Shown piece after piece: positions 1-10,780 of a DNA stretch of 34,582 bases. Below the pieces are notes generated by a model. It did not search any database and was not told the origin of the DNA. It saw nothing but the letters and a program-made list of their open reading frames with translations. Every line of letters starts with the position of its first letter. The first letter of the stretch is position 1. Source of the DNA: a virus (taxonomy: Duplodnaviria; Heunggongvirae; Uroviricota; Caudoviricetes); IMG/VR virus record IMGVR_UViG_2623620495_000015. The stretch is one strand, 5' to 3'. The position numbers and the translations under genes were made by a program.

Positions 1-237
1 ATGATGGTTAGAAATGAAGTAATGAACCTGGACTGGCACCGCGAGTACATTGTCGCAGCTGTGCACACCAAAGGTTTTACGTTGCGTGAACTGTCTGTTC
101 GCGCTGGTCTAAAAAAAGACTCTTTAAAAAATGCATTGTATCGCTCATGCCCTAAATATGAACGCATCATAGCCGATGCTATTGGTGTGGAACCTGCGGA
201 GATCTGGCCAAGCCGGTATGCCAGTAAGGCGGCGTAA
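1..237 (+). CDS. ner: Ner-like DNA-binding transcriptional regulator
   Basis: 78-aa ORF; C-terminal ...AIGVEPAEIWPSRY resembles Mu Ner (from memory); TAATG overlap with the transposase start. Confidence 0.75.
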   Translation: MMVRNEVMNLDWHREYIVAAVHTKGFTLRELSVRAGLKKDSLKNALYRSCPKYERIIADAIGVEPAEIWPSRYASKAA

Positions 238-2279
238 TGTTTTATTCAGCCAATGAACTGGCCGGTCTTACTGGTTTGCCCGGTACAGTTCAGGGGGTGC
301 GCTGGACGCTCAATCGGATCACAGAGACGCACCCGGAATGGAAGCGCAAGCGTGAAGGCACCAAAGCATTCGAGTATCACATCGACTGCCTGCCCGCTGA
401 AGCGCAGAAGGTTTTACGTAAGCGCCTGACTCATCAGGTCCTGGAAGATGCACAACTGCCCGCCGTGGTTGAGCAGAAGGCAGTTAAAAACGTCGCCGTT
501 CGCGATGAACTGGAAGTGATGGTCAAATGCCCGGAACTGGCATTACGCGAAGTTCAGGCACTGACCGACAAGCAAAAGGCCATCGCTGATGCGCGGATAT
601 TGCTGGCTACTGAAGTGCATAAACTGCGTGAATACGCAGGAATGTCCAGGACGGCGGCGATAAAACACATCGTTGATGGTATCCGCCAGGAGGCTTTGCC
701 CGAGCGCGTTATTGTGGCAGGTAATACCGCCAATGCCCGACAGGGTAAGCGAACTGGCGTCAGTACAGGGAGTTTACAGGAATGGTATTCCTCCTGGCTG
801 ATGGCGCGCGGTGATGCCAATCAGTTACTGGCGTTACTGGCCCCCGGTCATCATAAGGGAACACCGTGGGAGCAGGTCTGGTGGTTGAGCGATTTCTTTA
901 TGTTCTATCGCTCATGGAAGCGCCCGACCGTTGAATATGCGTATCGCGAGTTTTCAGCCTGGTGGCATGAAAAACACGCGAATGATGCGGGAATGCTGGC
1001 GGCACTGCCTTCAGTTCACGCAGTAAGACGGGTGTTAAGCAACGTCCCGGTGATTGTTAAAGAGCGTTTCCGCTCCACCGGTTCAGCCTGGCGTTCGCTC
1101 AATCCCTTTGTGCGGCGCGACTGGAGCACATTACCGGTTAATGCGGTATGGGTCGGGGATGGTCACTGCATGAAAATGACCGCGTTTAACCCCCTGACCG
1201 GCAATATTTTTCGGCCAGAAGTGACGCTGGTTATGGATGCGGGTCAACGCTTTGTTGTGGGCTGGTCACTGTCCCTGTCGGAGAACGTGGTGGCCGTTGC
1301 TGACGCATTGCGTCATGGCATGTCACAACACGGAATACCGCTGATTTATTACTCCGATAACGGGGGCGGTGAAAAAAACCGGGTACTTGATGCCGATATT
1401 ACCGGGATTCTGCCCCGGCTGGGTGTGGAGCATCACACAGGGATACCAGGTAACCCACAGGGGCGCGGGGTGATTGAAAGGCTTAACAAGGAAATTCCCC
1501 GGGATGTGGCCTTGAGCTTCCAGACGTACTGCTCAAAGGGAGCAGACAAGGAAACCGTAATGATGCAGCAACGGATTATGCAGTCAGCCATTAAGGCCAC
1601 CCACAAAGGGAAAGAGCTGACAAAACGGCAGGTTAAGGCGAGGGATGAAATCCCTACCTTTGAGCAACTGATGGCAGCCATAGAGCTGGAGGTCAGACGC
1701 TATAACAACCGGCCACACAGCAGCCTTCCCCGCAAAGAGGATGGCGAATATTACAGCCCGGCAGCGTATCGCCGGAAACTGATAAAAGAGCAGAATGTTG
1801 AAATTGATTTCCTGTCGCCGGAAGAACTGCATGAAATGTTCAGGCCGGAAGTAACGCGCAAAACTTTTCGCGGGGAAATTCAGTTATTCAACAATATTTA
1901 TTACTCGTATGAGCTGGCAGCAGAGCACGGGAATGAAGTCAGGGTCAGTTACGATATTCATGATGCAAACAGTGTCATTGTCCGGCGGGCTGATGGCTCT
2001 TATATCTGCGACGCCATCTGGAACGGTAACAAGGTTGATGCCTTCGCTAAACCAGTTATCGAACAAAAACTGGAGAAACGCGTCAGGGGCCGCATTGCAC
2101 GGGCCACGCAGAAAATCGAAGAGGCTAAACGCGAGCTTACCCCGGCTATTACGCAGAAACCTGACTTTAATTTTGGATTTGGTCTGGAGCACAAGGAGGA
2201 AAAGAAAAAAGAAGAACTTTATTTCTTTGTATCCGAGCGTGACCGCAATTTAAAGAAAGACGGTACAAACAACCGTTAA
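237..2279 (+). CDS. A: Mu-type DDE transposase (MuA-like)
   Basis: 680-aa ORF immediately after ner and before a MuB-like ATPase; length and position match Mu A (663 aa); recognisable similarity to Mu transposase from memory. Confidence 0.88.
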   Translation: MFYSANELAGLTGLPGTVQGVRWTLNRITETHPEWKRKREGTKAFEYHIDCLPAEAQKVLRKRLTHQVLEDAQLPAVVEQKAVKNVAVRDELEVMVKCPELALREVQALTDKQKAIADARILLATEVHKLREYAGMSRTAAIKHIVDGIRQEALPERVIVAGNTANARQGKRTGVSTGSLQEWYSSWLMARGDANQLLALLAPGHHKGTPWEQVWWLSDFFMFYRSWKRPTVEYAYREFSAWWHEKHANDAGMLAALPSVHAVRRVLSNVPVIVKERFRSTGSAWRSLNPFVRRDWSTLPVNAVWVGDGHCMKMTAFNPLTGNIFRPEVTLVMDAGQRFVVGWSLSLSENVVAVADALRHGMSQHGIPLIYYSDNGGGEKNRVLDADITGILPRLGVEHHTGIPGNPQGRGVIERLNKEIPRDVALSFQTYCSKGADKETVMMQQRIMQSAIKATHKGKELTKRQVKARDEIPTFEQLMAAIELEVRRYNNRPHSSLPRKEDGEYYSPAAYRRKLIKEQNVEIDFLSPEELHEMFRPEVTRKTFRGEIQLFNNIYYSYELAAEHGNEVRVSYDIHDANSVIVRRADGSYICDAIWNGNKVDAFAKPVIEQKLEKRVRGRIARATQKIEEAKRELTPAITQKPDFNFGFGLEHKEEKKKEELYFFVSERDRNLKKDGTNNR

Positions 2280-2296: not shown

Positions 2297-3190
2297 ATGA
2301 GTTTAATTACGCAATTAAATGACGTAATGGCCCGTCGCGGCTATACGCAGACCCACGTAGCCCGTGCTATTGGGCGTAGTAACGCCGTTATTAACCAGTA
2401 TTTGCAGGGTAAATATCAGGGCGATATCGCTGATATCGAAGAGCGAATTTCTGCCTTTGTCAGCCGTGAACGGGAGAAAGAAAACAATCGCCGTGTTAAA
2501 GCAAATTTTGTTGCCACCAATATGGCTGCCAAAGGACTGGAAGTGCTGGCCTACGCTCACCTGGAATGTGAAATCTGTGTACTGTATGGCGCAGCAGGCC
2601 TTGGCAAAACAATGATTCTGCGTGAATACGCAGCCAGAAACCGGGATGCGGTCCTGATTGAGGCTGACCCGGGCTACACAGCCAGGACACTGCTTGAGGA
2701 GTTGTGCCGCCAGCTGGGGGTAAAGGTTCGCGGCAACATTCACGAACTGATTGATGCCTGTGTGCGCGAACTGGGTGATTCCGGTCGTCTGCTGATGGTG
2801 GACGAGGCTGAACTGCTACCCTATCGCGCACTGGAGGTTCTGCGCCGTCTGCATGACAAGGCGGGTATCGGGATTGTCCTGGCGGGTATGCCACGCCTTC
2901 TGATTAACCTCAAGGGGCGTCGTGGTGAGTTCGCCCAGTTATACAGCCGTGTTGCGCTGGCGCTTAACCTGGGCGACACGCTGTCGCAGGAAGATTTTAA
3001 CCAGATAGCCACAGAGCTGATGCCGGAAGCCGTTGAACCGGAAATCAGCGAGGCGCTTTACACGCGCTCGTTGGGTAATGCCCGCCGTCTGTTCAAACTG
3101 GCGCGCGGTGTGTACCGGATTTGTGATATCAGCGATGCCCCCGTCAGCGTGCAAGCTATTGATGATTTCGCAGAAATGTTAATTCACTGA
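2297..3190 (+). CDS. B: MuB-like AAA+ ATPase, transposition target DNA activator
   Basis: 297-aa ORF; Walker A GAAGLGKT; MVDEAE Walker B-like; N-terminal HTH-like segment; follows the transposase as in Mu. Confidence 0.85.
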   Translation: MSLITQLNDVMARRGYTQTHVARAIGRSNAVINQYLQGKYQGDIADIEERISAFVSREREKENNRRVKANFVATNMAAKGLEVLAYAHLECEICVLYGAAGLGKTMILREYAARNRDAVLIEADPGYTARTLLEELCRQLGVKVRGNIHELIDACVRELGDSGRLLMVDEAELLPYRALEVLRRLHDKAGIGIVLAGMPRLLINLKGRRGEFAQLYSRVALALNLGDTLSQEDFNQIATELMPEAVEPEISEALYTRSLGNARRLFKLARGVYRICDISDAPVSVQAIDDFAEMLIH

Positions 3191-6991: not shown

Positions 6992-7271
6992 TAAAACGAT
7001 AACGATAGATGTAGCCATGAATGCAGGCATCGCTCTTCTCGGTTGGTGTTACATCATGCTCCGCGCCGGGATGTGGCTGTCCCTTGTATTCCTGAAAACA
7101 TGGAATAAGCACCGTAAACAGACGCAGCAGCAGAAGGCAATGAATGCGTTTTTTGAGGCCTTCGATATCGACAGTATAGAGCCGGGAGAACCAACCCGCG
7201 TTATCCCCGTAGGTGATGTCGTGATTTTGGTATACCGGAGTGAAAAGAATGAACAGGAGGTGGCGCAGTGA
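6981..7271 (+). CDS. small membrane protein (96 aa)
   Basis: AGGAGG-like RBS; one strong hydrophobic helix AGIALLGWCYIMLRAGMWLSLVFL. Confidence 0.4.
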   Translation: MVIDKTITIDVAMNAGIALLGWCYIMLRAGMWLSLVFLKTWNKHRKQTQQQKAMNAFFEAFDIDSIEPGEPTRVIPVGDVVILVYRSEKNEQEVAQ

Positions 7272-7432
7272 ACCAGCAAACCAGAATAAGCGATAAGAGT
7301 CTGACCAGACTGATTGCTGATGCGGACAAGGTGCTGGAGCGGAACACCCCGGTTGCCGATGAGGAATGGTGGCAGGATTTCCGGGCCGCAATGCTGGAAC
7401 TTCAGGAACGTCGTCGGGAGGAGTTGAAGTGA
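7268..7432 (+). CDS. hypothetical small protein (54 aa, GTG start)
   Basis: Translated manually (below the track cutoff); AGGAGG 8 nt upstream of GTG; GTGA overlaps on both sides. Confidence 0.3.
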   Translation: MNQQTRISDKSLTRLIADADKVLERNTPVADEEWWQDFRAAMLELQERRREELK

Positions 7433-8055
7433 GCAAGATGAAAGAGCGCGGCATGATTTTTAATGATGCGATGGTCAGGGCCATCCTCGAAGGCAGGAAG
7501 ACGCAGACTCGCCGACCTGTAAAAAATGTCGGGGCGGATAACTACCTGGTTATCAGTAAACCGACAAAGAAACGCAATGGTGTCTATATCCATGTTATGG
7601 ATGCACCGAAACATGGTTTATGTCCGTTCGGTAACGTTGGTGATCGCATATGGGTACGTGAAACATTCAACGCTTTTTGGCTGGATAACGATGTCATTCA
7701 GGAAATCAAAAATGGTGTCTCTCTGGCTTCTGAACTGTGTGATTACAAGGCTGATTACTCAGATAGTAGCAATCTAGCTGAGGGTTGGACCCCGTCAATT
7801 CACATGCCGCGATGGGCATCGCGTATTTTGCTGGAAATTACCGACGTGCGTGTGGAACGGCTGCATGACATGAGCGAGGCAGATGCTAAAGCGGAAGGCG
7901 CATCTCCGGCGACGTACAAGATTACACCGCCGGAAGCTGTTTATCGCGTTGGCTTTGGTGATATCTGGCGCGGTATTTACGGGCAAGAGAACTGGTTATC
8001 TAACCCGTGGGTATGGGTAATTGAGTTTAAGCGTATTCAGGAGGGCAACCAGTGA
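7429..8055 (+). CDS. hypothetical protein, possible ASCH-like fold (208 aa)
   Basis: GTG start 6 nt after GGGAGGAG; motifs GRKTQTRRP and GDRIWVRETF recall ASCH-type domains (memory, unverified). Confidence 0.45.
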   Translation: MSKMKERGMIFNDAMVRAILEGRKTQTRRPVKNVGADNYLVISKPTKKRNGVYIHVMDAPKHGLCPFGNVGDRIWVRETFNAFWLDNDVIQEIKNGVSLASELCDYKADYSDSSNLAEGWTPSIHMPRWASRILLEITDVRVERLHDMSEADAKAEGASPATYKITPPEAVYRVGFGDIWRGIYGQENWLSNPWVWVIEFKRIQEGNQ

Positions 8056-8645
8056 GCAACATTAATTACCAGGCACTGCGAATGGCGGCAGAAAATGCAA
8101 CCCCTGGCGAATGGTGTTCTGATAATTACTATGGGGTAATTGCTGATGCCGGACTGAACGCAAATTACTACATAGCATCATGCTCAGGACCAGATAATCG
8201 TGCCAATAAGCGATTCATAGCAGCAGCCAATCCGGCTGCTGTGCTGGCACTGCTGGATGAACTGGAGTATTACAAATCACGCGAAGAGCGGGTTACAAAG
8301 CTGGTTATGGATAACTCGACAAGTTGGGATGCTCTTTACAAGAAGCTGGAAGCCGCAGAGAAGCGCATAGCAGAACTGGAAGCACGGGAAACAAAACCAG
8401 CCAAAGGCGAAGTTCTTGTCGTTGTATCTGGTTTTACTGGTTGCGGAAAAAGCGCCATTGCCGGGGAAATAGAAATCGCGATGAAGGCTATTGGTGTACC
8501 GGTTAAGTGGACTAATGGCGATGCAGAAAAGCGCATGACTGGCGCTGACTGGCTGACAGCAATTGAGATGTACAAACCAACTGTGCGCATCGTGGAAGTT
8601 AATGTGCCACGCGTCGCTGGCATTCGCATCAAAGGAGGTGAGTAG
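8052..8645 (+). CDS. ead/Ea22-like protein
   Basis: GTG start after AGGAGG; motif AANPAAVLALLDELE plus coiled-coil AAEKRIAELEARE, typical of Ea22-like proteins (memory). Confidence 0.5.
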   Translation: MSNINYQALRMAAENATPGEWCSDNYYGVIADAGLNANYYIASCSGPDNRANKRFIAAANPAAVLALLDELEYYKSREERVTKLVMDNSTSWDALYKKLEAAEKRIAELEARETKPAKGEVLVVVSGFTGCGKSAIAGEIEIAMKAIGVPVKWTNGDAEKRMTGADWLTAIEMYKPTVRIVEVNVPRVAGIRIKGGE

Positions 8646-8814
8646 TGCGTGTGGCATGTATCGGCTTGTTACCGTACCCGACTCGTTTTTGGGCTTCTGC
8701 GCTAATTGCAAAGCCGCATGTCCTGATGGCTGACAGCATCATCCCTGCACCGAAACGCCGTACAGGCATTGCGGCGGCGAGACGAGCAGCAAAGAAACGC
8801 AGGAGAACAAAACG

Positions 8815-8997
8815 ATGAAAAACCGTAAGGCAAAAATTCTGTTAGCTCGCAGAAACGGTGTTGGGATCTGGCGATGGTTGAGGATTAGTAACAGACGAGT
8901 GAGGTTGACGGGGTGTTGCGGGGTGATGGGGCACAGTTGTTGCAAAAAGCCCAGCGCGGCGCAAAACCGCTGGAAGAATCACACTAACGCAAAGTAA
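8815..8997 (+). CDS. doubtful small basic ORF (60 aa)
   Basis: ATG with AGGAG RBS, but extremely K/R-rich with CC..CC; may be non-coding. Confidence 0.2.
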   Translation: MKNRKAKILLARRNGVGIWRWLRISNRRVRLTGCCGVMGHSCCKKPSAAQNRWKNHTNAK

Positions 8998-9016
8998 TTA
9001 AATAATAACCAATAAC

Positions 9017-9040
9017 AGACCAAAACATATGTTTTGGTCT
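9017..9040. repeat. perfect 24-bp palindrome AGACCAAAACATATGTTTTGGTCT, with a third half-site GTTTTGGTC at 9053-9061
   Basis: Read directly from the sequence; lies just upstream of the ATG at 9065. Confidence 0.7.
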
Positions 9041-9064
9041 GCCAAAAGTAGTGTTTTGGTCATT

Positions 9065-9343
9065 ATGAAGATTGAACAAATCGGAATGGCAGCCTTCCGG
9101 CAACAGGCTGAAAGCGGTGGCGTGGATGAGTTCGTCGTGCAGCGGTTCGGTGGTGTATATCACCTCTTCGCTGTGAATCGCCGCGCCGGGGTGTCCTATT
9201 TTCTACAGGAACGCCGTGGCGATTACAAGACGTGGCTGTCTCTTGATCGTGCCGCTGCGTTCCTGTCAGGGATTGGCGTTTCACGTTTTACCGTGCGTTT
9301 TGAGGATAACAAACATGCTGAAAAAGATGATCGGAGCCATTAA
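9065..9343 (+). CDS. hypothetical protein (92 aa)
   Basis: Internal ATG of track ORF 9029..9343; overlaps the gemA start by 29 nt. Confidence 0.4.
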   Translation: MKIEQIGMAAFRQQAESGGVDEFVVQRFGGVYHLFAVNRRAGVSYFLQERRGDYKTWLSLDRAAAFLSGIGVSRFTVRFEDNKHAEKDDRSH

Positions 9344-9713
9344 AGCCGGTCAGGCGTATCTGGGGTGGGATGATGCCCTTTATCGCCAGACGCTGGCCCG
9401 CCTGACAGGTAAAACCAGCACCACTCGCTGCAACCTCGATGAACTGCGCATCATCCGGGAATATATGCACGAACAGGGATTCCCGCGTAAAGCGCCCACC
9501 GGTAAAGGTCGCCGTCCCCGTGTTGCAATGAGCAGAAAATCGGTATTATCAAAAATTGAAGCGTTGCTGGCTGATGCCGGTCGTTCCTGGGGGTATGCGG
9601 AAGGACTGGCATCTCACATGTATAAGCAACATGTGATCGAATGGCTGACGGATGAACAGCTTTTCGGGGTGATGGTGGCGCTGGTTAAAGATTCAAGAAG
9701 GAGGAGTAAATGA
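9315..9713 (+). CDS. gemA: GemA-like protein (Mu gp16 family)
   Basis: ATG with GAGG RBS (track ORF 9216..9713 begins earlier at a non-ATG codon); MLKKMIGAIKAGQAYLGWDDALYRQTLARLTGKTS... matches the Mu gp16/GemA family from memory. Confidence 0.65.
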   Translation: MLKKMIGAIKAGQAYLGWDDALYRQTLARLTGKTSTTRCNLDELRIIREYMHEQGFPRKAPTGKGRRPRVAMSRKSVLSKIEALLADAGRSWGYAEGLASHMYKQHVIEWLTDEQLFGVMVALVKDSRRRSK

Positions 9714-10213
9714 TTAAAAAACGGTATTTTCTTTTAGTGGCGTTCATTTTGTCTTTTCCTGCCGTTGCTGAATGGCACACATGGGTACAAAAAGATGCTT
9801 TTGATGATCAACAAACAGCCATGATGGTGGGTATTGGAACAATGGATTTTGGGATTGCTTTAGACTGTTCGAATGACTCACTATTTGCTGGTATTACAAA
9901 AGAAACAGATAAAGTTAACATTGCGTTATTCGGTTCATCAAAAGATTTAATATTTAGGATAGACGAATTTCCAGCAGTAAAGACCACAGGGGTACTCGCT
10001 GCACGAAATGAAAAAATGTATATCTATAAAATAGAGGACAAACAAAAAATCAAAGAGTTGTTATCTTATCTTCGAAAAGCCCAAAAACGTGTTTTAGCTG
10101 GTGTAAAAGAACCGAGTGAAGAACGAGGCGCATCGTTTAATGTAACACCGACAGGTTCAACAACCGCTGTTAATAAATTTATCAAAGCCTGTAACATTAA
10201 GATTCCAGAGTAA
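9710..10213 (+). CDS. secreted/periplasmic protein of unknown function (167 aa), AT-rich moron
   Basis: Strong RBS GAAGGAGGAG; Sec-type signal peptide MIKKRYFLLVAFILSFPAVA/EW; GC content visibly far below flanking phage genes; own terminator downstream. Confidence 0.6.
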   Translation: MIKKRYFLLVAFILSFPAVAEWHTWVQKDAFDDQQTAMMVGIGTMDFGIALDCSNDSLFAGITKETDKVNIALFGSSKDLIFRIDEFPAVKTTGVLAARNEKMYIYKIEDKQKIKELLSYLRKAQKRVLAGVKEPSEERGASFNVTPTGSTTAVNKFIKACNIKIPE

Positions 10214-10312: not shown

Positions 10313-10780
10313 ATGCAGACCTTCAGTGAAACAGATCTTCGCGATGCGCAGGCACTGCTGCCCGATTCCGTGCAGCAACTGATTAGCGTGATTGGCTTCC
10401 CCGCCCTGACCCGGTTGATTCGTTCTTTTGGTGGCGTGACGTTAAGTGGTAAAACCGGCGCACACGCCGAACGCACCGGCGGTGTCCATGCCCTGTTACA
10501 TGACGTGCTGACCGAAGACGAAATCAACAAACTGATCCGCTTTCTTGGCGGTGCTCCGTTTTACATCCCCCGTTGCGATCATGCGTTACGTGCCCTGCGT
10601 AACACCCGTTTTATGGCTGATTTACAGCAGCATGTAAAAGACGGGTGCTCACACCGGCAGGCGCTGGCGCTGCTCTGTCCCCGCTACGGGATTTCAGACC
10701 GGTATGCATGGCAACTGATACACCGACGACAAAAACAGACTTCGCTGAAAAGCCCCACCCAGGTGGGGCTTTTTGATTAA
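10313..10780 (+). CDS. Mor/C-family transcriptional activator
   Basis: 155-aa ORF with GGAG RBS; C-terminal region with FYIPR motif and HTH-like segment resembles Mu Mor/C (memory); sits after gemA as in Mu. Confidence 0.7.
   Translation: MQTFSETDLRDAQALLPDSVQQLISVIGFPALTRLIRSFGGVTLSGKTGAHAERTGGVHALLHDVLTEDEINKLIRFLGGAPFYIPRCDHALRALRNTRFMADLQQHVKDGCSHRQALALLCPRYGISDRYAWQLIHRRQKQTSLKSPTQVGLFD
10751..10775 (+). terminator. intrinsic terminator overlapping the 3' end of the Mor/C-family gene
   Basis: GCCCCAC (10752-10758), loop CCAG, GTGGGGC (10763-10769), then T5. Confidence 0.5.

Follow-up and report, generated by a model that had tools for sequence, protein, structure and literature searches.

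In lambdoid phages, the small genes of the exo-xis region near ea22 are nonessential and poorly characterized, had a coding status that was long uncertain, and affect the lysis-lysogeny decision (PMC4195576, PMC7093339). Small ORFs that annotation has passed over, yet that are under purifying selection, abound in Enterobacteriaceae (PMC11188072), and the prophages of pathogenic E. coli encode many small RNAs (sRNAs) in unannotated gaps (PMC4104026). The closest described relatives of the two genes examined here are members of PHROG families 13831 and 1380, including gp49 and gp50 of phiV10, Bas106_0024 and Bas106_0023 of CurroJimenez, and ECs_1168 of Sakai. The copies of these two genes in Stx phages occupy the same niche as lambda orf60a, orf61, orf63, orf73, and ea8.5 (the early-left operon beside ea22) and are likewise small, but no sequence relationship to those genes was found (no Pfam or NCBIfam match).

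We examined a 371-base interval (positions 8646 to 9016) that extends from the stop codon of an Ea22-like gene to a palindrome in a Mu-like transposable prophage. The window, i.e., the whole stretch of DNA analyzed, is 34,582 nt long (IMG/VR record IMGVR_UViG_2623620495_000015) and has Pfam matches to Mu transposase, an AAA_22/TniB ATPase, GemA, and Mor. The original prediction took the interval to be without a confident gene and its ORFs to be marginal. The three ORFs that it listed (a GTG ORF, a basic ORF with a CC..CC pattern, and an antisense TTG ORF) are all present at the coordinates that it gave; however, the first two, referred to here as ORF1 and ORF2, are conserved plus-strand genes with clear signatures of protein-coding selection, and the GTG ORF, far from being marginal, is conserved and under purifying selection. 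ORF1 and ORF2 together cover 8645 to 8997, ~95% of the interval, in an operon whose whole orientation is that of the plus strand. Judging from comparative sequence data, we consider it very probable that they are two real, coupled protein genes carried in a mobile cassette.

The pair resembles its PHROG relatives in length, order, junctions, and place after an Ea22-like gene. It differs from them in its setting, which is a Mu-like transposable prophage rather than the lambdoid exo-xis region; in the start codon of ORF1, which is GTG here, whereas ATG is commoner among family members; and in the end of ORF2, which reads ...WKNHTNAK ahead of an intergenic palindrome, whereas relatives end ...WKNHLRTKGE and are coupled to the next gene. 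The features of the locus and its surroundings are as follows.

237-2279, plus strand: Mu-type transposase gene (Pfam)
2297-3190, plus strand: AAA_22/TniB-type ATPase gene (Pfam)
3' of the ATPase gene, plus strand: DUF3164, DUF2786, and DUF4752 genes (Pfam)
Between the ATPase gene and the Ea22-like gene, plus strand: gene with a weak ASCH-like match (E = 0.025, not reaching the Pfam cutoff)
8052-8645, plus strand: Ead/Ea22-like gene, directly 5' of ORF1
8358-8982, plus strand: horizontally shared block comprising the Ea22-like C-terminal module, ORF1, and ORF2 (BLAST similarity)
8629-8769, minus strand: antisense ATG ORF
8633-8639, plus strand: SD sequence AGGAGGT for ORF1, 5 nt upstream of the GTG, read from the sequence
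8645-8818, plus strand: ORF1, 57 aa plus stop (58 codons), GTG start
8739-8945, minus strand: antisense TTG ORF, 68 aa, rejected as a gene
8801-8805, plus strand: SD sequence AGGAG for ORF2, 9 nt upstream of the ATG, inside the last ORF1 codons
8815-8997, plus strand: ORF2, 60 aa, ATG start
8998-9016: AT-rich noncoding spacer TTAAATAATAACCAATAAC separating ORF2 from the palindrome, kept in Mu-like relatives
9018-9043: palindrome, 3' of ORF2 and the spacer
9216-9713, plus strand: ORF containing the GemA match (Pfam)
10313-10780, plus strand: Mor gene (Pfam)

Coding constraint on ORF1 and ORF2

We compared ~170 loci in all, comprising 80 IMG/VR loci anchored on ORF2, 80 anchored on ORF1, and a set of annotated phage and genome loci. 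Conservation analysis across related phages had been suggested as a check by the original prediction, and it found both plus-strand frames open at constant length in these loci. ORF1 was intact at 56 to 58 aa in all 80 of the ORF1-anchored loci, which were gathered with a single ORF1 sequence as the query. It was 174 or 177 nt long in 71 of 77 copies, with 38 distinct DNA variants, and the aligned start codon was ATG in 52 and GTG in 17 of the 77. Indels between intact variants were whole codons, and 933W and Sakai carry a 7-codon in-frame deletion. The ORF2-family frame was open in all 59 unique DNA variants analyzed, which included several paralog types, and nearly all copies encode 58 to 64 aa. 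Protein homologs of ORF1 and ORF2 were found down to ~50 to 60% identity.

Substitution patterns pointed to the same two frames. The in-frame dN/dS (Nei-Gojobori over all pairs, with column-bootstrap 95% confidence intervals [CI]) was 0.335 for ORF1 (CI, 0.22 to 0.51), compared to 0.96 and 1.26 in the shifted plus-strand frames, and 0.353 for ORF2 (CI, 0.25 to 0.48), compared to 0.97 and 1.15. The bootstrap intervals of the in-frame values exclude 1 and do not overlap those of the shifted plus-strand frames. Variable columns were most numerous at third codon positions, both in ORF1 (42 versus 28 and 28 at the other two positions) and in ORF2 (54 versus 44 and 42). Synonymous codons varied at the invariant or nearly invariant ORF1 residues V3, L8, P10, R14, P24, P36, K37, R39, T41, G42, A44, A46, and R48. 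The invariant ORF2 residues K5, K7, L9, R13, and S31 are written with alternative synonymous codons, and the same is true of the near-invariant residues R12, R33, R34, G42, and R58 (the last as both CGC and AGG). Because invariant residues use different synonymous codons, conservation acts at the level of the protein and not merely at that of the DNA. The original prediction had named a conserved protein across the whole interval as the finding that would overturn it; these comparative sequence data would stand in for that finding. A published list of newly recognized translated small genes in Sakai (PMC5597208 supplements), compiled from uninduced cells, in which early prophage genes are repressed, does not include the homologous interval of prophage Sp5.

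The two predicted proteins are small and extremely basic. The ORF1 protein (6.4 kDa; pI 12.0; 15 K+R and 1 D/E; GRAVY, -0.19) aligns through residues 1 to 57 with positions 1 to 58 of the 58 in the PHROG 13831 profile (E = 4.5e-37), and a search of 5.8 billion proteins placed its homologs in 83 protein clusters. A GLLPxPxRFW motif is conserved near the N terminus, the N-terminal half is moderately variable across the family, and the C-terminal KRR(H)TGIAAARRAAKKRRRAKR, a predicted helix, is nearly invariant. The ORF2 protein (6.9 kDa; pI 11.9; 16 K+R and no D/E; GRAVY, -0.74) has CC pairs at residues 34-35 and 42-43 and aligns through residues 1 to 60 with positions 1 to 60 of the 62 in the PHROG 1380 profile (E = 2.5e-29). 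Its family has a narrow range, with 32 clusters at the 90% identity level and just 39 at the 50% level among 1.84 billion representatives, and is marked by the motifs M[KN]NRKA[KR], h[RK]hSN[RH][RK], and SAAQNRWKNH, between which the spacers vary in sequence and length. Profile-profile comparison indicated that ORF1 and ORF2 are unrelated to each other (probability, 3%).

Searches with Pfam, NCBIfam, PADLOC (at E up to 1), and PDB-sequence profiles gave no meaningful match for ORF1 or ORF2; the only match among the first three was a weak, compositional one between ORF1 and adenovirus core protein V (E = 0.051). AlphaFold2 models built with family alignments consisted of low-confidence helices (pLDDT of 63.6 and 63.2), and Foldseek found no match for the ORF2 model among viral structures (best E, 7.9). 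Fused or extended ORF2 relatives (P0147, P0143, P0137, and P0132) carried no informative extra domain, an ORF2 profile scan of representative bacterial genomes confirmed no locus, and no mention of the peptide sequences or locus tags came up in a full-text search of the literature.

Junctions, linkage, and exchange between phages

ORF1 and ORF2 are joined to each other, and to the gene upstream, by overlapping stop and start codons. The final codons of the Ea22-like gene, which specify K-G-G-E, contain the SD sequence of ORF1; the 3' end of that gene reads AAA GGA GGT GAG TAG, and the GTG start of ORF1 shares 1 nt with the TAG stop (TAGTG), the last G of TAG being the first base of GTG. At the second junction, the ORF2 ATG overlaps the TGA stop of ORF1 (ATGA), the 3' end of ORF1 being CGC AGG AGA ACA AAA CGA TGA. 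This overlap architecture is the one classically seen in translational coupling, and it continues the tight packing of the operon. From the anatomy of the region, we infer that ORF1 and ORF2 are read on a long plus-strand early transcript together with the MuA/MuB-like genes, the Ea22-like gene, gemA, and mor; ribosomes ending the Ea22-like gene would reinitiate at the overlapping GTG of ORF1, and those ending ORF1 would reinitiate at the overlapping ATG of ORF2, in each case with the SD sequence a few nucleotides upstream (5 and 9 nt, respectively).

Both junctions are widely shared. The AAAGGAGGTGAGTA(A/G)TG junction 5' of ORF1 occurs in 40 distinct contexts. The upstream genes differ between phages, and most of them end in ...KGGE and the stop, the codons of which form the SD sequence and start of ORF1; most ORF2-type genes likewise end in ...KGE and the stop. 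The CAGGAGA(G/A)CAAA(A/G)CGATGA junction at ORF2 is conserved in nearly all copies. In 80 of the 80 ORF1-anchored copies, ORF1 was followed by an overlapping downstream M[KN]NRK ORF of the ORF2 family; ORF1 always precedes an ORF2-family gene, and therefore the pair moves as a cassette. Genes of the ORF2 family are also found without ORF1 (strain 08-00022, PJ16, vB_YpM_39, and D6) and as tandem coupled paralogs (phiV10 p50/p51, RCS47, TL-2011b, and PJ16). By BLAST, only the ORF1 part was matched in TL-2011b and, partially, in Av-05, and only the ORF2 part was matched in Yersinia phage vB_YpM_39, PJ16, and Sashavirus; the breakpoints coincide with ORF boundaries. Phage D6 lost ORF1 by deletion between two GGAG repeats; in STEC316, an additional gene has been inserted at this linker.

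The interval was found by megablast and blastn in 80 to 100 phage records. Identity to it was 93 to 94% in phiV10 and the O157 typing phages, 86% in the P1-like RCS47, 78 to 80% in Stx phages such as 933W, VT2-Sakai, and Min27, and 77% in CurroJimenez_Bas106. Among complete E. coli genomes, 542 of 5,426 (~10%) carry it, at 374 places on chromosomes and 254 on plasmids. Similarity to phiV10 was 94.4% over query positions 359 to 979, a stretch that begins midway through the Ea22-like gene (8358) and reaches 8978, and similarity to the Stx phages and RCS47 was 78 to 86% over query positions 611 to 983, reaching 8982. Similarity to lambdoid, phiV10, and P1-like phages breaks off ~15 nt short of the ORF2 stop codon, and the Mu-like backbone takes over from there. 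Because ORF2 ends ...HTNAK on Mu-type sequence past the end of this similarity, the block made up of the Ea22-like C-terminal module, ORF1, and ORF2 was imported into the Mu-like early region, having been acquired from lambdoid/phiV10-like phages. The block is also present in P1-like and virulent phages.

The cassette moves among lambdoid/Stx, phiV10-like, P1-like, Mu-like, and some virulent coliphages, with exchange taking place at short conserved linkers that double as stop/SD/start junctions. Lambdoid phage modules are swapped at short conserved flanking sequences according to the part of PMC2327257 that cites Clark et al. 2001 on this point, and the mobility of the cassette fits such module exchange.

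The prominence of the junctions also allows the reverse emphasis, in which the stretch would serve as linkers for module exchange and as a ribosome relay from the Ea22-like gene to the genes downstream, the peptides themselves, ORF1 especially, being functionless. The junctions are indeed the most conserved parts, recombination breakpoints fall there, and the conserved C terminus of ORF1 overlaps the SD sequence of ORF2. Moreover, ORF1 is dispensable, because frameshifted variants exist and because it is missing from some relatives (strain 08-00022 and D6); the frameshifts, which are common among database variants, lie in the C-terminal third of ORF1, and one such variant (P0104) is found on 95 contigs. 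However, amino acid constraint runs throughout both ORFs, away from the junctions, with an ORF1 dN/dS of 0.41 over codons 1 to 36 and of 0.20 from codon 37 to the end. Synonymous changes occur at T41, G42, A44, A46, and R48 of ORF1, and in the central SNRR motif of ORF2, the residues are conserved while the codons vary. Distant ORF2 relatives keep all three family motifs despite differing spacer lengths, which is a pattern of protein and not of DNA. We regard functionless peptides as quite improbable on these grounds and retain the reading of ORF1 and ORF2 as a coupled pair of protein genes.

RNA, cis-acting, and antisense readings

The original prediction had offered a small RNA or a cis-acting site as possible contents of the interval. 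On this reading, the plus strand would specify a small regulatory RNA or a cis-acting element with RNA structure, and the ORFs would be incidental. Prophages of pathogenic E. coli carry many sRNAs in unannotated gaps, and AgvB, AsxR, and the EcOnc series, like the interval studied here, lie in prophage DNA left empty by annotation (PMC4104026). The interval is unannotated in several RefSeq genomes, and the local sequence is purine rich. The EHEC prophage sRNAs, however, are discrete Hfq-bound transcripts, many with predicted terminators, situated mostly near PR' and moron sites, whereas the interval shows coding constraint and no RNA signal. The covariance-model search that had been proposed as a check gave no Rfam match inside 8646 to 9016 at E up to 10. 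Minimum free energy was at the level of dinucleotide-preserving shuffles (z of -0.37 on the plus strand and -0.80 on the minus strand), with no excess structure. A consensus scan, which is weak evidence, picked up neither a promoter nor a terminator above chance level in the interval, the sole promoter-like match (8978 to 9006) being within chance expectation. Substitutions are frame specific and follow codon periodicity, not base pairing. Finally, none of 63 orphan Hfq-bound peaks put forward as sRNAs in Sakai falls in the homologous Sp5 interval, 1249916 to 1250255 (PMC4104026, Table S2), which is weak evidence from uninduced cells. An RNA or cis-acting element with incidental ORFs is, accordingly, very improbable, and neither form of that proposal is borne out.

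The composition of the interval had also been remarked upon, and here the picture is mixed. The plus strand is purine rich as claimed (0.582 in 8646 to 9016, the 93rd percentile of same-size windows), but it is not G rich overall, its G content of 0.291 being ordinary (42nd percentile). Only 8850 to 8945 is G rich (G, 0.43). GGTG/GTTG/GAGG words number 11 there, compared to 4.2 expected from shuffles (~2.6-fold), in a subwindow picked post hoc. This part consists of the codons for NGVGIWRWLRISNRRVRLTGCCGVMGHSCC, a sequence that is not kept in ORF2 paralogs, and its GC skew of 0.29 is equaled elsewhere in the same operon. A G-quadruplex in the G-rich stretch was considered and rejected, as the G-runs are not conserved in relatives.

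A genuine antisense gene, for which the TTG ORF (8739 to 8945) and the ATG ORF (8629 to 8769) are the candidates, merits next to no credence: both ORFs exist, 37 of 38 variants leave the frame opposite ORF1 open (dN/dS, 0.352), and the frame opposite ORF2 has an apparent dN/dS of 0.51, but low values are expected as a mirror effect of shared third positions (that of the TTG ORF frame is lowered because its wobble positions are shared with ORF2), antisense replacements are more radical than sense ones (mean BLOSUM62 of mismatches, -0.46 and -1.17 versus 0.00 for ORF1 and -0.64 for ORF2), no SD sequence precedes the antisense ATG, a consensus scan found no minus-strand promoter-like site nearby, and the operon lies wholly on the plus strand. 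The TTG ORF is not a gene, because its frame contains one or two stop codons in 50 of 59 ORF2-family variants; it is not conserved and has no PHROG or Pfam match. With the frame opposite ORF1 open and its dN/dS at 0.352, selection statistics alone cannot separate the two strands there; the probable sense strand of ORF1 rests on the SD/start/stop overlaps, the milder replacements, the lack of an antisense SD sequence or promoter, and the orientation of the operon.

Possible functions and annotation of the pair

Early binding to nucleic acid or to an acidic host factor would be the most likely activity of the two proteins given their very high positive charge, the C-terminal helix of ORF1, which is rich in arginine (KRRTGIAAARRAAKKRRRTKR), and the N/R/K-rich motifs of ORF2. 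The proteins would act early in infection or induction, binding RNA, DNA, or an acidic host factor, as their composition suggests, and would serve accessory, nonessential functions like those of the small genes of the lambdoid exo-xis region. A nucleic-acid-binding function in particular is possible, and we put it forward tentatively from composition. The original prediction had suggested a highly basic nucleic-acid-binding peptide; its gene, ORF2, is indeed conserved and under purifying selection, and the binding is the tentative part.

In the AlphaFold2 model of ORF1 built with the family alignment, an Arg/Ala-rich helix spans residues 39 to 56, with a pLDDT of 73 to 79 there. We take this predicted helix (AAARRAAKKRRR) to resemble arginine-rich-motif RNA-binding peptides such as the N terminus of lambda N, and presumably the Q-x-x-W-K element in SAAQNRWKNH of ORF2 can be likened to such peptides as well; we treat the ORF1 likeness as a lead. 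ORF1 and ORF2 differ from lambda N in having no detectable homology to it, in being half its size, and in being without its NusA- and RNA polymerase-binding regions. ORF1 showed no homology to solved structures in PDB sequence profiles, and no boxB-like RNA target was identified for either ORF.

Other activities were considered for the two proteins. The CC..CC pattern of ORF2 was rejected as a zinc site or zinc ribbon, the Cys columns (40, 41, 48, and 49) being occupied by Y, F, S, K, L, and other residues in most paralog types. No hydrophobic membrane-spanning segment of the kind looked for in small membrane toxins (type I toxin-like or holin-like) was found in ORF2, and none was found in ORF1, in which the longest uncharged stretches are 11 and 8 residues and are broken by P, T, and R. 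The N terminus of ORF1 was rejected as a signal peptide, since the hydrophobic core that this would require contains R14 and relatives do not keep the ASA motif.

A bolder reading, which we judge to be unlikely, is that the ORF1 product pairs with one of the ORF2 family in an obligately coupled module of arginine-rich microproteins that binds RNA or targets the ribosome or a host factor and that is swapped as a cassette and used early. If this were true, lambdoid/Stx, phiV10-like, P1-like, Mu-like, and 9NA-like phages would share a two-protein module that might, for example, modulate host or phage RNA or counter host defense, and the hypervariable middle of ORF2 would reflect an arms race. More modestly, the pair extends the long list of small accessory genes in the early operons of temperate coliphages, and the strict ORF1-then-ORF2 linkage, the extreme basicity, and the spread over unrelated phage types make it a reasonable, if not urgent, target for functional work.

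What makes the interval look empty is a routine gap in annotation; it does not represent a new RNA or DNA element. ORF1 and ORF2 are already known, being catalogued as PHROG families of uncharacterized proteins and listed as hypothetical proteins in several phages. Annotation pipelines often miss them, and RefSeq calls both, one, or neither of the two in near-identical prophages; the resulting apparently noncoding gaps invite sRNA and cis-element readings of genes that ~10% of complete E. coli genomes carry, including those in Stx phages and P1-like phage-plasmids. Neither protein has an NCBIfam model, which may explain the inconsistent RefSeq annotation. Among the Mu-like relatives, neither gene is annotated in STEC316 or Z1323CEC0011 (RefSeq); in E2348/69 (RefSeq), ORF1 is annotated (WP_001261588.1) and the divergent ORF2 is not, and in strain 08-00022 (RefSeq), ORF2 is annotated (WP_071940939.1). 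In Sakai prophage Sp5, the ORF2 homolog is ECs_1168 and the ORF1 homolog is unannotated. Both ORFs are annotated in phiV10 (PhiV10p49 and PhiV10p50) and in phage CurroJimenez (Bas106_0024 and Bas106_0023).

Conserved junctions and joint transfer of the cassette

Genes in this class of operon typically end in ...KGGE* or ...KGE* (positions 8631-8647 and 8798-8818 of the window and, among the compared loci carrying ORF1- or ORF2-family genes, L001 to L009 and L174), and the codons of these ends, AAAGGAGGTGAGTA(A/G)TG and AAAGGAGAGTGATATG, serve the gene that follows as its ribosome-binding site and start. Recombination breakpoints coincide with these conserved linkers: ORF1 is deleted at the linker in phage D6, an extra gene is inserted there in the Mu-like relative from strain STEC316, and the upstream genes at the linker vary from phage to phage. 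The C-terminal module of the Ea22-like protein, ORF1, and ORF2 were transferred jointly. This module shares 94% identity with phiV10 gp48, carries the Walker-A motif GFTGCGKS (amino acids 127 to 134 of the protein), and gave weak, subthreshold matches to APS kinase and AAA_16. Other Ea22-like proteins have different C-terminal domains.

8358-8645, C-terminal module of the Ea22-like protein, ~80 amino acids
8430-8453, Walker A motif within this module

Tandem ORF2-family paralogs

Two ORF2-family paralogs in tandem are a frequent arrangement; their ends are conserved and their middles differ strongly. When a second copy lies downstream, the C terminus of the first changes from ...QNRWKNHLRTKGE to ...QNRRKKGYAVR.

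Tandem paralogs in four of the compared loci:
L003, 1962-2332
L004, 1379-1740
L006, 1379-1743
L008, 1201-1589

Inverted repeats downstream of ORF2

9018-9043, perfect 26-bp palindrome, CAGACCAAAACATATGTTTTGGTCTG
9045-9062, second inverted repeat, CCAAAAGTAGTGTTTTGG, 3' of the palindrome

A dimeric protein could use these repeats (9018-9062) as its operator, or they could form an RNA hairpin. Among relatives, the region carries one compensatory change (C-G to A-T) in E2348/69 and one mismatch (T.G) in 08-00022. No T-run is present at the repeats on the + strand, and they look like a terminator on the - strand only. Four ACCAAAA/TTTTGGT half-sites lie within 9018-9062, immediately 5' of the next gene. 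The ATG at 9029, at the center of the palindrome, is the annotated start of a 104-amino-acid form of that gene in one genome; the other three relatives checked start at the ATG at 9065 (92-amino-acid form).

Flanking reading frames

7268-7432, 54-amino-acid ORF
7366-8055, 229-amino-acid weakly ASCH-like ORF, as listed
9710-10213, 167-amino-acid ORF between gemA and mor

Starting the weakly ASCH-like ORF at its first ATG produces a 67-nt overlap with the preceding 54-amino-acid ORF. Translation of this weakly ASCH-like ORF probably begins inside it, at an ATG near 7438 (MKERGM...), and the junction would then be as tight as usual. The 167-amino-acid ORF, for which no family match was found, is probably a separately acquired moron; its GC content (0.33 to 0.39) is much lower than that of its surroundings (~0.5), and its N-terminal segment, MIKKRYFLLVAFILSFPAVA, resembles a signal peptide.
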